Origin: a virus | Strand: one strand, 5' to 3' | Virus record (IMG/VR): IMGVR_UViG_3300032050_010539 | Length of the DNA stretch: 64,000 bases | Shown here: positions 9,019-36,694 of the stretch, one piece after another | Position numbering within the stretch: position 1 is the stretch's first letter | Layout: each line of letters opens with the position of its first letter | Translations under genes and position numbers: made by a program | The notes under the pieces: generated by a model | What the model was told of the DNA's origin: nothing | Database searches by the model: none | Seen by the model: the letters and a program-made list of their open reading frames with translations, nothing else

Positions 9019-9040
9019 GTTTCAATTCCTAATAGGAGTT
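9019..9040 (-). CRISPR. solitary CRISPR-repeat-like unit (type I-D-like 3' half)
   Basis: minus strand AACTCCT-ATT-AGGA-ATTGAAAC: 4-bp stem followed by the canonical ATTGAAAC handle. Confidence 0.5.
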
Positions 9041-9733: not shown

Positions 9734-9806
9734 TGCAGGATAGCGGAATCGAACCGCTCTAAGCCGTCTTATGAGGACGGTGCCTCCACCTATCGGCCAA
9801 TCCTGC
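9734..9806 (-). tRNA. tRNA with CAT anticodon (elongator Met or Ile2)
   Basis: GCAGGAT acceptor stem; CCGTC-CTCATAA-GACGG anticodon arm; GGTTCGATTCC T-arm; no encoded CCA. Confidence 0.92.
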
Positions 9807-10859: not shown

Positions 10860-10932
10860 TGCAGAATAGCGGAATCGAACCACTTTGAGCCGTCTTATGA
10901 GGACGGTGCCTATACCAATCGGCCAATTCTGC
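10860..10932 (-). tRNA. second tRNA with CAT anticodon
   Basis: GCAGAAT acceptor stem, identical anticodon arm CCGTCCTCATAAGACGG, GGTTCGATTCC. Confidence 0.92.
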
Positions 10933-11391
10933 TTATTGGGAAACCGTAGCTATGGTCTCATAGTCTATTATTCAGTAGGTGCTTCTATGGGGGGCCCCGC
11001 TCGTGCTAAGGCCACTACTACGGGTTAGGGGCCCGCGGGTTTATCGCCCCTCATGTTGAGTTATTACTTGCTCGAGGGCCATGGATAGTGCGGGCCCGCA
11101 GTCTAACTCTATACGGTAGCTTATCACGCTATTGACCTTAATCTTATCGTTCTCGAACCAATCACAACTGCGCTAGGCTCGAACTCACCGTATGCTTCTA
11201 CACTGGTATCCATTACGTAGCTCAGCGCTACGCTTCCACAGTGAAATCAGTCTGGCCCGCGCATAGCAGCTGTGCGTCTTCTACACGATAGTAGAAGGCC
11301 CTGTTACTGTAATTAGCTGGGCCCACAGTAAGTCCTACACAGTACTGAGTTAATGTGGCGCGCCTTGATATCTATGTTGTTTATGCTCAGG

Positions 11392-11613
11392 TTAATCATT
11401 ACTTAGAAGCTCTACTAGATAATCAATGGAACGGATACTATATTCTTTATTCGAGCCCTTGGCCCGCCAGCGGTTACGCGTCGGATAGTAGTAGTAGAAG
11501 CGGCCCTTAACGTTAATCAGTAGGGACCCATTACCAACAGAGGACCATTTAATGCCGTGTTTATCTAGGCACTCCTTAGCGTGATCAAACTCAGGGAAGT
11601 TTTCATTATTCAT
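11392..11613 (-). CDS. hypothetical protein, paralogue of 12205..12426
   Basis: MNNE..AK..LD.H.I.W...YYYY..R.RWRA.GSN.EY...SID.L shared. Confidence 0.75.
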   Translation of the reverse strand: MNNENFPEFDHAKECLDKHGIKWSSVGNGSLLINVKGRFYYYYPTRNRWRAKGSNKEYSIRSIDYLVELLSND

Positions 11614-11641
11614 GGGCTCATCCACTTTAATTAATAGGGTA

Positions 11642-11670
11642 TTGACAGGGCGGGGGCCCTGTGCTATAAT
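11642..11670 (+). promoter_or_regulatory. consensus sigma70/SigA promoter
   Basis: TTGACA-17nt-TATAAT with extended TG. Confidence 0.85.
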
Positions 11671-11676
11671 ACACGC

Positions 11677-12100
11677 ATGTGTATAACACATCTGCAGACG
11701 TAAGGCGAAGCTTTATACTGCGTACGCCGTGCCCCTAACTCACGAGAGCACGAAGGGAATGAGGCCAGGACTGCCTCACTACCACCTGGGTACCCGACAC
11801 CCACCTGCCATCGATAAGGTGATGATGGTAGGTAAGTCAAACGGCATACCGATAGGTATGTAGCCCCACACGGGGCGGAGGGGATGACCCCTTGCAGGCG
11901 GGAGGGGGCAGCGCACGCAGGTAATGAGAGCCACGGAGCAGCGACCGACTGGGGGGAGGGACTCCCGTAAGGGAGTTAGGCCTATCCTCTCCTCAGGATG
12001 ACATATAAACCGCCCTTGGCGATTCCCCCAATCGGGTGAAGCTATTTATTAGACGCTGTAACCAATAAATTATTGGCCCCCTTACGTTATCGGGGGGGCC
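11677..12100 (+). ncRNA. candidate large structured non-coding RNA
   Basis: no ORF; directly downstream of the consensus promoter; many stems, e.g. ACCTGCCATC/GATGGTAGGT, CATACC-GATA-GGTATG, GACTCCC-GTAA-GGGAGTT, GCCCC-ACAC-GGGGC. Confidence 0.55.
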
Positions 12101-12195
12101 CACCACAGGCCCACAACAGCTAACTTAATCCCTACTAGGGATTGAAACTCTAGGATGGGTCCCTCTGATTAGCTGTTGTGGGCCTGTGGTGGGCC
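12097..12195 (+). CRISPR. solitary type I-D-like CRISPR repeat enclosed in a 27-bp inverted repeat
   Basis: CTTAATCCCTACTAGGGATTGAAAC (12124-12148) between GGCCCACCACAGGCCCACAACAGCTAA and its reverse complement. Confidence 0.7.
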
Positions 12196-12204
12196 GTTAG
12201 TTAA

Positions 12205-12426
12205 TTAAGGGATCCTGGAGAGGAACTTTATTAGGTGGTCGATAGAGTGTGTATTATACTCCCTATTGCTTCCTCTGGCCCGCCACCTCCCCCGGCGCAG
12301 GTAGTAGTAGTAGGAGCGCTCTCCTACTGTGATACGAAGGCACTCATCGCTGATAGGCGCCCAGGGTATGCTGTGTGCATCTAGTCGCGCCTTAGCGTAA
12401 TTTATATCATTACTCTCATTATTCAT
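12205..12426 (-). CDS. hypothetical protein, paralogue of 11392..11613
   Basis: shared motifs with its paralogue. Confidence 0.75.
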   Translation of the reverse strand: MNNESNDINYAKARLDAHSIPWAPISDECLRITVGERSYYYYLRRGRWRARGSNREYNTHSIDHLIKFLSRIP

Positions 12427-12926
12427 TGGCTGTTCTATTATATTGGCACTATTATACTATCATTTGGCCGCCTAGACTATCGTATGGCACTATTGTGTCC
12501 ATTATTCTAATTGGGGCTCGCGGATAGTCCCTGTTCTATACCTGCTCTGCCCCTCGCCCTTATGAGAGTGGTTATAAGGGGGCTGTTATAAGGAGGGGGC
12601 CACCACGGAAGGGGTGGCGGTAATACCTACACGATCAACATAGTTCAGTCGTCATGTCCTTGTCTTCCTTATATTGATAGTCCACGAGGAGGGAAGGGGC
12701 CGCCTGATTATAGAGCGGGCCCCCCTCTACCGCAGGGCCCACTGTGTTATAACATCGCGGGCCCCATATGCATTGGTATATAACAGTAGCTGAGCTTATA
12801 CACTGGTTCCTTATACCGTAGTAGAGCCCACCATCGTGACAGTATGGCCTCAATACTGAGCTACACCGGCCGCGTACCGTTATACCGCGGGCCTTATGTT
12901 AGTTGACTGTATCCTCAATGTTGGGG

Positions 12927-12955: not shown

Positions 12956-13143
12956 GGATGTATTGGATTATAGAGGTGCGGCCGCTAGACTATTTAGGCC
13001 CATCTTGCTAGCATATCCACAAAATTAGCCTAATACATCACCCCCCTTCACAGAGATGCGGCCGGCGCCCAGATAGCACCACCTATGGCCATCGAGGGTT
13101 CCTAGAGCCCGGGCCTTCCTCGCTAATTAGTACATCGGCATTA

Positions 13144-13172
13144 TTGCCACGACGATAATTTCGATGTATAAT
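13144..13172 (+). promoter_or_regulatory. sigma70-like promoter
   Basis: TTGCCA-17nt-TATAAT followed by hairpin GCTCACTGA..TCAGTGAGC. Confidence 0.6.
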
Positions 13173-31492: not shown

Positions 31493-33463
31493 TCAGTTAT
31501 GACTGATCACATAGACGCGCTTAGCATCCGTATACCCTTTGTAATCTTGTGGTAGAAGAGACCCTCCTACTTTAAGTACCTTGCCCCATGCGGCGAGGGC
31601 ACCATAAAGATCCCCGTTTGCTCCGAGGAGCACCCGGTTGACGAAGGCACTATAGAGATCCCCACTTTCTCCCATGATCACCCCTTCGATGAACCACATC
31701 TTAAGAATCTTCTGGGCTATCTCTTCGTAGAGAAGAATAACCGTGGGCTCTCGTTGCTCTAGCCCAAGTGCTTCGCAATTGTCGAAGCACAAATCCCCGG
31801 ACTTGTTAATCCAGGTCCAGGACTGGGCTATTATGGTTCCTATATCATCTTCAAATACGAGGAATCCAGAATTGGGCTTTTCTTGCCCATACCAAGCGCA
31901 GGCCCCCCCATCTCCGTCTGGGTGCTGACAACAGTTGGTATATTCACCGAGGAAGAGCCCTCGCGTATCCTCCCGGGGGAGGAAGTACGCCCGTATTCCA
32001 TCCCGGGTTGCACTAATCCCCGGGAGGAAGTTGGGTTGTTGTAGGGAACGTATAAAACGCCCCTCGTAGTACTCGAAATCCCGGGTAGATACGCCCCAAT
32101 TGGCGCACTCAAAAGCAAACTCTTGGTGCTTAATATTTGTGTACTTACGTACTTTACATGCCGTCACTAGTTGACGGAATGGCAGAGAGCGCTCCTCTGT
32201 ATTTAGTTTGTGCCAGACTCGGCATATTAAGCCGAGTTCAGAAACTGAGGTAGAGCGCTGGCGTAGGCGCTCCCCCTGTGCGAATAGAAACTCGCTCAAT
32301 CCCTGCCCGCCGAGGGGTAACCAGTAGGTGGCGTCATGCTCGCTGTAGCCGAGCTTGGCCATCTTACTGAGCCACTCCTCAGAGCGGCCTCCAAAAGTAA
32401 CCACCAATGGGACAATGTACTCTAGAGGATTCTCACGTAGCAATAGCTTATTAGCTGCTGTTACCTTCAAGGTAGGTATATGCCCGCCCTCCCCAAATAT
32501 AGTTTCTTCGTTTTCTTTAAAGGCCTTGAGCAGAGGGCGCTCAATAGCACAACTAAGTTCCCCGTACAATTTACGGAGGGCTAGGCGCTTGTGCCCATTA
32601 AGCCACAGGTACTGAGCTATGGCCGTGCGCCCCAAGTGGCACACCTCATTAAAGCGCTGCCAGAACGCATTAACGCGTTCGGTACGGGAACGGCGGCGTG
32701 CCCGATCCCATTGTTTCCCCTCCTCTTTCCAGATGACCCCAGCAAGGGCTCGGAGGTCTGGGCGGGACTTGTACAGAGTTCCCAGCCGTACAGCCAGAGA
32801 CTTAGGAATCTCTGTATTGTACTTCCACACGCTCGCAGCTGGGATTAGATCCCAGACGTTACCAATGCGGGTGGAAACAGGCATACGAACTAGTACACGC
32901 TTAACCCAAATGGGTAAGCGGTTATAGTTCGGGGTGCATGCTACTGCCAATACCGTACTGTGGTCTGGTTGGTAACCAGAGTTCCATACCCGCCCAGGGG
33001 CGCGGACACCCTCCCATAGAGGGAGAAAGCGCTTTACTTCCCACCAGTGTTTAACACCTAGATCTACTAGGCGTTCAGCTAACTGAGGAGTTCTTAGCTC
33101 CTCGAACCAAATTCCCTCTTTCTCGTAGGGGAGTTTAATACCTTCGTTTAAATGAAGGTATCGGATAAGGCGGAGGCGCACTTTATTTGCTTCCTTTGCC
33201 TCCTCCAAGGCTACTTCTCGGGTGATGACCCGAGAGATAATCCAGCGCTGGGAGCTAGATAGACTATTCCACTCCTCCCATTCACTCCAGGGAGTGAATG
33301 GATTGAGTTCCAGCCACTCCCGGAACTCAAGTAAAACGTTATAAAGAGAGAAGTAGTAGGGAGCGGGGTCAGCTCCCAACTCAGCTCCCAACTCCCACTC
33401 AAAGGAGTAGGCAAGCTGAATACGGCCCGCTTTGGTTTTGGCAGATTTGATAAACTTAGACAT
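31493..33463 (-). CDS. large hypothetical early protein with C-terminal PcfJ-like/GNAT-like domain
   Basis: LFLGEYTNCCQH..G.GGAC...SGFLVF...IIAQSWTW...LCFDNCE pattern. Confidence 0.65.
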   Translation of the reverse strand: MSKFIKSAKTKAGRIQLAYSFEWELGAELGADPAPYYFSLYNVLLEFREWLELNPFTPWSEWEEWNSLSSSQRWIISRVITREVALEEAKEANKVRLRLIRYLHLNEGIKLPYEKEGIWFEELRTPQLAERLVDLGVKHWWEVKRFLPLWEGVRAPGRVWNSGYQPDHSTVLAVACTPNYNRLPIWVKRVLVRMPVSTRIGNVWDLIPAASVWKYNTEIPKSLAVRLGTLYKSRPDLRALAGVIWKEEGKQWDRARRRSRTERVNAFWQRFNEVCHLGRTAIAQYLWLNGHKRLALRKLYGELSCAIERPLLKAFKENEETIFGEGGHIPTLKVTAANKLLLRENPLEYIVPLVVTFGGRSEEWLSKMAKLGYSEHDATYWLPLGGQGLSEFLFAQGERLRQRSTSVSELGLICRVWHKLNTEERSLPFRQLVTACKVRKYTNIKHQEFAFECANWGVSTRDFEYYEGRFIRSLQQPNFLPGISATRDGIRAYFLPREDTRGLFLGEYTNCCQHPDGDGGACAWYGQEKPNSGFLVFEDDIGTIIAQSWTWINKSGDLCFDNCEALGLEQREPTVILLYEEIAQKILKMWFIEGVIMGESGDLYSAFVNRVLLGANGDLYGALAAWGKVLKVGGSLLPQDYKGYTDAKRVYVISHN

Positions 33464-35696: not shown

Positions 35697-35767
35697 TATT
35701 GGCAGAGGCGGCCCCGCAAATTTATTGTAGTTCCTCTGTAATTTAATTATTTAATTAGGAGTAATTT

Positions 35768-36694
35768 ATGACGTTACCTATTGTCGGCTCGAGATACGGA
35801 TTTGCCACTTATGGTTGGCGTACATCTGAGGTTGGCGGAGCATATTTTAATATGCCTGATTTTCTTTTATTCCTGGATGCTATTGGTATCACCTCGACGC
35901 ATCGATTTGTCAGTGCAGATGGGACGCTAATTAATCTTCGATTCCCAGAGGTTGATACTGACTTAATCCAGTTGGGAAATGTAACTGAAAGTTCTAGCGA
36001 TGGGAGGTATCGGGTGTCGATGGTACGTGCTAATAATAATGTTGGAACTAACCCATTTTTCTGGTCGCTTTTGGCGCATACCTATGCCACAAGAACCCAG
36101 CTTAATGACACAAGATCTACAGTAGTAGGTACGTTTGGCGCAGTCTCAGGATACTTATACGCCTGTGCCGATGATATGGGGATTGCTATGTTCGCGGCGA
36201 CTAATACCGGATTATCTACATATAGTGGCCAAACATCTTTTCACTATTTTGGACACTGCGGGGATCCAGCATCCGTAGCTTATTTTGGCAATAATGACCG
36301 CTATCCACTGGACTATGTTGCAGTTGGATCTGGCGGTGATTTTAGAAGAATTAAGGAGATAGCATTACCTGGAACACCAGGGGGCATACAATCCCCTCAA
36401 CCTGTGGTAGTTATTGGATCTATTAATTGCGTCAATCCTACTCCTGGTGCCAATAGTACTGATCTTATGTTTAGGGACAACGGTCCCTCAGACTATGGGA
36501 CTAATTATCCCCTAGGAAGAGCCAGACCCTTTTTATTATTTATTAACCAAAATCTAGCAGTGAATAGTCTAGTAAGGGTTCTAAACGAAGAAGAACCGAC
36601 ACCAGAAGATCACTTTCACATAGTAGTTAGTAGTGTTACTGGTGGCGGCAGCATATTAATGCCAATTATTACTGAAAATTACACCTTGCCATAG
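35768..36694 (+). CDS. hypothetical beta-rich protein (possible virion/receptor-binding)
   Basis: 308 aa, G/S/T/N-rich; AGGAG RBS; composition differs from neighbours. Confidence 0.6.
   Translation: MTLPIVGSRYGFATYGWRTSEVGGAYFNMPDFLLFLDAIGITSTHRFVSADGTLINLRFPEVDTDLIQLGNVTESSSDGRYRVSMVRANNNVGTNPFFWSLLAHTYATRTQLNDTRSTVVGTFGAVSGYLYACADDMGIAMFAATNTGLSTYSGQTSFHYFGHCGDPASVAYFGNNDRYPLDYVAVGSGGDFRRIKEIALPGTPGGIQSPQPVVVIGSINCVNPTPGANSTDLMFRDNGPSDYGTNYPLGRARPFLLFINQNLAVNSLVRVLNEEEPTPEDHFHIVVSSVTGGGSILMPIITENYTLP

Follow-up and report, generated by a model that had tools for sequence, protein, structure and literature searches.

Within a 64,000-nt stretch of viral DNA (IMG/VR record IMGVR_UViG_3300032050_010539, hereafter the window), a perfect sigma70 promoter, P1, leads into an element of about 370 nt that is sharply bounded, strongly constrained and non-coding. 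We consider it somewhat more probable than the opposite, at roughly 55%, that this element is a real plus-strand gene for a structured non-coding RNA, undescribed before and restricted to the lineage of Ma-LMM01-like Microcystis phages, a reading that we draw from sequence comparison. In sister phages P1 drives a mini-CRISPR array, a point that an earlier note on this DNA, made from its letters, had missed and that changes the likely biology of the locus. Neither the structured RNA nor the mini-arrays of Ma-LMM01, CH01 and DL01 are described in the literature that we searched, the original Ma-LMM01 genome paper and Kuno et al. 2012 being outside that search.

BLAST against a phage collection identified the window as a Ma-LMM01-like Microcystis phage of the genus Fukuivirus. 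The whole locus aligned in MaMV-DC and MaMV-DH01, and the left flanking gene alone in Ma-LMM01, MaMV-CH01/CH02 and MaMV-DL01/DL02. One copy each of the structured element occurs in MaMV-DC, in MaMV-DH01 and in about ten metagenomic contigs, and the element is missing from Ma-LMM01, MaMV-CH01 and MaMV-DL01. Relative to CH01, DL01 and LMM01, the RNA and the convergent paralogue gene to its right form an insert of about 1.2 kb, present in some phages and absent from others, with a sharp left junction at CTGCAG. We aligned 11 distinct copies of the element, namely the window's own, those of two isolates and those on IMG/VR and JGI contigs, and used two covariance models, R1 for domain B and R2 for inner domain A, each of which matches this site only.

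Searches beyond this group of phages gave no further copies. BLAST of the element returned only Fukuivirus matches from the phage collection, and only chance matches of 18-31 nt from 201 host-order genomes and 17 Microcystis species genomes. The covariance models found no second copy in MaMV-DC and DH01, and no additional or diverged copies in the entire Ma-LMM01, CH01 and DL01 records or in other cyanophage contigs; run against 151 cyanobacterial genomes, R2 reached a best per-genome E of 0.16, i.e. noise. Exact-pattern scans of IMG/VR and JGI metagenomes recovered near-identical copies only, with no diverged homologues from which covariation could be read, and the loci retrieved via the flanking small protein again came from one phage group. 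The element is confined to one phage genus, and so narrow a distribution counts against its being a non-coding RNA gene.

The perfect TTGACA-17-TATAAT promoter to which the earlier note had pointed is present on the plus strand, with a TG before its -10 hexamer (Table 1). P1 was found in all six isolates and is one of two perfect sigma70 sites in the 64-kb window, the other being P2 at 12927. Its 17-nt spacer contains the palindrome CAGGGC-N4-GCCCTG. Promoters of the same design (TTGACA, a GGG-N-CCC palindrome, TGTGCTATAAT and ACAC) precede protein genes in other cyanophage contigs, which suggests that P1 belongs to a shared type of strong early promoter whose spacer palindrome may be an operator. 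Early genes of Ma-LMM01 are reported to be driven by host SigA-type promoters (PMC5780444), and the transcriptome in that study comes from a phage without the element. The position of the -10 hexamer would place the transcript start at about 11677, at the foot of a small 5' hairpin. Variants of this hairpin keep their pairing: DH01 has a U-A to U.G change, and phages of the L005 type have a 4-nt deletion that leaves a shorter hairpin.

Table 1. Features of the P1 locus in the window and of the related loci in other phages and contigs.
Feature	Position	Strand	Remarks
gp048-like 73-aa gene	11392-11613	-	phrog_27453; divergent from P1
Promoter P1	11642-11670	+	TTGACA, 17-nt spacer, TG-extended TATAAT; scores 12/12
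Protospacer	11646-11684	-	39/39 to CH01/DL01 spacer; 5' GTT (complement of 11685-11687)
Predicted transcript start and 5' hairpin/palindrome	11677-11691	+	ATGTGT-ATA-ACACAT, then CTGCAG; common to array-bearing phages
Domain A (predicted)	11692-11941	+	long interrupted closing helix, 11692-11749 with 11894-11941, around six hairpins
Domain A hairpins (predicted)	11755-11783, 11788-11802, 11803-11833, 11844-11861, 11863-11876, 11878-11893	+	MFE, RNAalifold consensus
Domain B (predicted)	11945-12035	+	three-way junction; CCGA/UCGG and GGGGG/CCCCC closing; CUCCC-GUAA-GGGAG hairpin
Variable hairpin block	12045-12101		AT-rich hairpin, then GGCCCCC-loop-GGGGGGGCC
Perfect 27-bp inverted repeat	12097-12195		45-nt loop (12124-12168) holds the solitary CRISPR-repeat unit
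Solitary CRISPR-repeat unit	12125-12150	+	80 nt downstream of core
Paralogous 73-aa gene	12205-12426	-	convergent with RNA; part of ~1.2-kb insert
tRNA-Met(CAT) genes	9734-9806, 10860-10932		ARAGORN
656-aa accessory gene	31493-33463	-	no Pfam or PHROG family
Ma-LMM01 mini-array	L003:3728-3962 = Ma-LMM01 35708-35942		annotated only '56 bp repeat unit'
CH01 and DL01 mini-arrays	L148:3281-3393 (CH01), L149:3279-3391 (DL01)		
P1-type promoters, other cyanophage contigs	L162:163-205, L164:3820-3862, L165:1296-1338, L166:781-823		

In Ma-LMM01, an identical P1, 5' hairpin and CTGCAG are followed directly by three 37-nt host-type repeats with two spacers, and in CH01 and DL01 two perfect repeats with one 39-nt spacer come after the promoter, hairpin and CTGCAG. 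The 3' half of the repeat is a common cyanobacterial array repeat, found in at least 120 stretches of the genome collection; among the matches listed, nearly all are cyanobacterial and most lie in arrays spaced at about 72 nt. Genomes that bear the RNA have no full repeat under P1, and genomes that bear an array have no RNA. This alternation leads us to regard P1 as an early promoter that is itself conserved and whose non-coding cargo can be exchanged.

The spacers of these arrays match sibling phages. Spacer 1 of Ma-LMM01 has no other match in Ma-LMM01 and has antisense matches in all five sibling genomes, with one mismatch in MaMV-DC, two in DH01, CH01 and DL01, and three in the window (13051-13086), where the target falls inside the expected P2 transcript. 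The CH01/DL01 spacer is an inverted copy of P1 and matches the P1/RNA 5' end of the window, DH01 and Ma-LMM01 at 39 of 39 positions. Four differences separate it from the own P1 of CH01 and DL01, in which the hairpin centre is flipped, and four from the P1 of MaMV-DC, in which the centre of the spacer palindrome is flipped (11652-11655). The type I-D system of M. aeruginosa has 5'-GTH-3' as its PAM (PMC7648086), and the GTT beside the window protospacer conforms to it. The use of host Cas proteins by viral mini-arrays against related viruses is a known phenomenon (PMC11656645), with which these sibling-directed spacers agree. The inverted P1 copy in the CH01 and DL01 arrays could also act as promoter of the gp048-like gene. 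As a separate observation, palindrome centres are recurrently flipped between otherwise near-identical phages, and at two sites the match to sibling spacers changes with them.

P1 drives repeats directly in the sister phages, and in the window the solitary repeat unit lies on the same strand as the core (11692-12038), a short distance downstream of it (Table 1). Solitary repeat units are known RNA anti-CRISPRs, called Racr (PMC10651486; also PMC11656645), and the core might accordingly be no independent RNA but a structured 5' carrier or leader that stabilises or presents this repeat, in a long Racr or crRNA-like precursor whose active part is the repeat. The locus does resemble Racr (PMC10651486) in being a phage non-coding locus with its own promoter, beside tRNAs and with a solitary host-type repeat just downstream. 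However, MaMV-DC and DH01 carry the repeat-bearing loop in the opposite orientation to the window, and L007 has a rearrangement of the region, with the core invariant throughout; terminator-like hairpins stand between core and repeat; the repeat is itself enclosed by the perfect 27-bp stem; and a near-invariant length of 370 nt goes far beyond the needs of stabilisation. Unlike Racr, moreover, the core is about ten times the size of a repeat unit and has no repeat-like sequence: a search of 11677-12044 that allowed up to 3 mismatches to the 3' half or up to 8 to the full 37 nt found nothing. We therefore regard the carrier explanation as unlikely.

The hairpins between core and repeat, at 12045-12101, likely terminate transcription from both sides, that of the RNA and that of the convergent paralogue gene, given their position and the U-rich tails that they have on the minus strand. 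Phages of the L005 and L142 types have the terminator loop at 12083-12092 flipped. The core was no more complementary to the CRISPR repeat, or to the spacers of Ma-LMM01 and CH01, than shuffled sequences were. This gives no support to a simple antisense or sponge mechanism and leaves protein binding to be inferred. Beyond position, nothing mechanistic links the core to CRISPR.

We also compared the element with known RNA families and systems. The earlier note could assign it to no family, and Rfam 15, whose families include GOLLD, ROOL, HEARO, OLE, raiA, RNase P, 6S, tmRNA and group I/II introns, likewise gave no match at gathering score over the whole window; at E<=10 over 11300-12500, the only hits fell on the inverted repeat and solitary repeat (12096-12195) and none on the core. 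GOLLD and ROOL are large ornate phage non-coding RNAs, often near tRNA genes, whose function was long unknown. The element is like them a large, ornate, ORF-free phage-borne RNA candidate, and the proximity to tRNAs that had brought them to mind holds, with two tRNA-Met genes 0.7 and 1.8 kb upstream. The suggested kinship does not hold, as neither model matched even at E<=10, and unlike GOLLD and ROOL the element is shorter (~370 nt), occurs in one phage genus and is near-invariant in sequence rather than covarying. Incidentally, the Rfam gathering-score scan of the window returned no tRNA match, unlike ARAGORN.

With viral mini-arrays (PMC11656645) the locus has in common the identical promoter, 5' hairpin and CTGCAG junction seen in Ma-LMM01, CH01 and DL01, but the window carries a structured RNA there, with no spacers and no full repeat. 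A likeness to guide-RNA scaffolds (tracrRNA, TnpB/IscB omega RNA, TranC-type) lies in a long structured RNA upstream of a CRISPR-type repeat, in phages that carry TnpB; unlike those scaffolds, the element shows no anti-repeat complementarity, no adjacent nuclease gene and no HEARO or other Rfam hit. A tracrRNA-like scaffold was rejected, the best core-repeat duplex reaching -17.4 kcal/mol against a shuffle mean of -17.8. TnpB/IscB omega RNA was rejected as well, since neither the window nor MaMV-DC has a nuclease gene next to the element and TnpB is not co-inherited with the RNA. So was retron, DGR or group II intron RNA, there being no RVT_1 match in the MaMV-DC, DH01, Ma-LMM01 and CH01 records.

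On the plus strand the predicted minimum free energy (MFE) is -175.3 kcal/mol (z = -3.8), and none of 100 shuffled sequences folded equally well. As a local control, the adjacent P2 transcript gave z = +0.75, not better than shuffles. The minus strand folds at least as well (z = -5.5), the core alone giving -153.7 kcal/mol on plus and -162.4 on minus, and as a test of strand thermodynamics is uninformative. The MFE and consensus folds contain hairpins with the GUAA, GAUA and AUGA loops that the earlier note had read from the sequence, together with one with an ACAC loop. The nested stem GGGGAGGGA/TCCTCTCC that it proposed (GGAGGG/CCUCUCC) can form, but only in place of the pairing that domain B has in the MFE fold.

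The details of the consensus fold are predictions. None of the 106 predicted pairs shows a compensatory double change, as the family is too uniform, with only about 10 sites varying at all; the fold is therefore a purely thermodynamic one. Two of the variable sites, 11807 and 11829, are each other's predicted partners, a point in favour of a plus-strand RNA; they give G.U, G-C or A.C, and the one variant with A.C counts against such an RNA. The one-sided changes fit wobble pairing on the plus strand: besides the U-A to U.G change in the 5' hairpin of DH01, the L005 type has G-C to G.U at 12033 in domain B, and a loop change at 11701 turns GUAA into GAAA. In L132 and L140, the GUAA loop of domain B (11966-11969) is flipped to UUAC, which counts against it.

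These folds bear on whether the functional molecule might instead lie on the minus strand, as a long structured stretch between cistrons or a 5' UTR that leads into the gp048-like gene, or as an antisense RNA. Both flanking genes are on that strand, its fold is slightly better, and the gp048-like gene has no obvious promoter of its own. Nevertheless, no sigma70-like site of 8/12 or more occurs on the minus strand of 11600-12110, hairpins with U-rich tails follow the paralogue gene, and the gp048-like gene is expressed in phages without the element. Moreover, the three substitutions that are wobble-neutral or GNRA-preserving on plus become A.C mismatches, or a non-GNRA loop, on minus. These few substitutions lean towards a plus-strand RNA. 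Since P1 lies on plus and minus has no comparable site, we assign the element to the plus strand and hold a minus-strand function to be quite unlikely.

Sequence constraint was compared over ten sequences spanning 11392-12426. In the core, 11 of 347 columns are variable, with a mean pairwise difference of 1.1%. The core is tighter than both flanking genes: the gp048-like gene has 36 of 222 columns variable and 5.0% difference (Fisher p = 6.5e-8), although it is itself rather conserved (mean identity 95%), and the paralogue gene has 71 of 222 and 14.3% (Fisher p = 8e-22). The near-invariant block runs from the promoter to about 12038, and in the terminator/inverted-repeat block that follows (12045-12204) 120 of 188 columns (64%) vary.

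Such uniformity could also reflect recent exchange between co-circulating phages rather than function, if the element were a selfish or DNA-level feature, i.e. a recombination cassette, a palindrome-rich hot spot or a recent mobile insert. Its presence/absence polymorphism and sharp left junction would suit such a feature, as would the frequent inversions of palindrome centres at the locus and the TnpB elements inserted nearby in DH01, CH01, DL01 and L141. The insert, however, is old: its remainder has diverged by 14-29% and the core alone has been kept constant, which is better explained by selection than by recent insertion. The core is associated with neither terminal repeats nor a transposase, and no copies exist elsewhere in the phage genomes or in the 17 Microcystis and 201 same-order genomes. 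We consider a selfish origin of the uniformity improbable.

The earlier note had described the stretch as ORF-free and GC-rich, and the core has 58% G+C compared with about 40% directly upstream, the longest ORF on either strand of 11692-12100 being 58 aa. That the core codes for one or more small proteins is, judging from these sequences, highly improbable: there are short ORFs (44 aa on plus; 58, 51 and 37 aa on minus) and the predicted start at 11677 carries an AUG, but most relatives lack the stop codon of the 44-aa ORF (11862 A>G), which varies at codon positions 1 and 2, indels of 1 nt (in G-runs), 4 nt and 6 nt occur within the stretch across relatives, and a frameshift disrupts the 8-codon leaderless ORF in the L005 type, the ORF running into a CRISPR repeat in Ma-LMM01.

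For the structured plus-strand RNA, we infer transcription, 3' end, trans action and target as follows. Host SigA RNA polymerase would start at about 11677 from P1, strongly and early in infection, and the transcript of about 370-420 nt would fold into the 5' hairpin, the large domain A and the three-way-junction domain B, ending in the hairpin block 12045-12195, which would also close the convergent paralogue gene. The folded RNA may then act in trans by binding protein, as a stable scaffold or a decoy, and may interfere with host CRISPR-Cas or RNA-processing factors.

Ma-LMM01-type phages shape the blooms of Microcystis, whose defence arsenal is among the largest known. Of the jobs that the RNA might have, we rank first, with considerable doubt, a role in counter-defence or inter-phage competition, because the RNA replaces a CRISPR weapon at P1 in phages that are targeted by such weapons. 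Just as tentatively, it might be a weapon or shield interchangeable with the mini-array at P1, for example by sequestering Cas6, Cascade, a type III component or an RNA-processing enzyme, maybe together with the 656-aa GNAT-fold protein described below. If so, it would protect a phage whose P1 and P2 transcript are both targets of sibling arrays. At this locus a single conserved early promoter carries alternative non-coding cargos, a sibling-aimed mini-CRISPR array or a tightly constrained 370-nt structured RNA. If the element is a counter-defence or competition factor, such factors, known so far as short repeat mimics, would gain a large structured RNA; if it does something else, it would still be a new class of orphan RNA, whose promoter and borders are clear and for which natural knock-outs exist. 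Since there are cultured phages with the RNA (MaMV-DC, DH01) and without it (Ma-LMM01, CH01, DL01), these proposals are directly testable.

Protein partners for such an RNA were sought around the locus and across the genomes. The flanking small proteins are paralogous, as had been noticed along with their YYYY..R.RWRA motif: both are 73-aa ORFs, 49% identical, and belong to phrog_27453, of unknown function in PHROG. The further suggestion that they bind the RNA fared less well. The gp048-like gene is present in Ma-LMM01, CH01 and DL01, all without the RNA, and therefore the idea of a specific partner fails; a relative of the right paralogue is also found on contig L141, again without the RNA. 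TnpB was rejected as a partner too, TnpB-type genes occurring in all five compared genomes, with or without the RNA, and thus being unrelated to its presence.

The 656-aa protein is, by its co-occurrence, a possible partner. Among MaMV-DC segments of 120 bp or more, just three are shared with DH01 and absent from Ma-LMM01, CH01 and DL01, and two of the three are also in the window, namely the RNA insert and the 656-aa gene. The RNA and the protein occur together in six genomes (the window, DC, DH01, G359, G360 and G367), the RNA without the protein in one contig (G363), and neither in four (Ma-LMM01, CH01, DL01 and G364); the protein without the RNA was not seen among genomes spanning both sites. 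This co-occurrence is a lead and not evidence, since the lineages are few and related. The C-terminal 200 residues give a confident model that resembles a GNAT acetyltransferase (weak Foldseek E of 0.05-0.3, probability up to 0.99), and PcfJ-like entries are among the Atlas matches. Distant homologues with 33-39% identity exist in other phage and bacterial contigs, and R1 and R2 gave no match on three contigs that carry them.

Several further features of the region were observed. P2 (12927-12955) and an 11/12 site at 13144-13172, both on the plus strand, have an ORF-poor stretch downstream; P2 is kept in CH01, DL01, DC and DH01 and missing from Ma-LMM01. In DH01 (L002:1755-2963), CH01 (L148:1755-2963) and DL01 (L149:1755-2963), the gp048-like gene has a tnpB-only IS605-type element at its 3' end, as does a gp048-like remnant on contig L141 (L141:2880-3500), where the insertion is an ordinary one and lies beside a solitary repeat. 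The 3' end of the gp048-like gene is thus a recurrent tnpB insertion site, empty in the window and MaMV-DC. Finally, the window has a second solitary CRISPR-repeat-like unit on the minus strand at 9019-9037, with 2 mismatches to the 3' half of the repeat, and in some relatives that side holds a complete solitary repeat of 37 nt (L004:1390-1426, L132:3183-3219).
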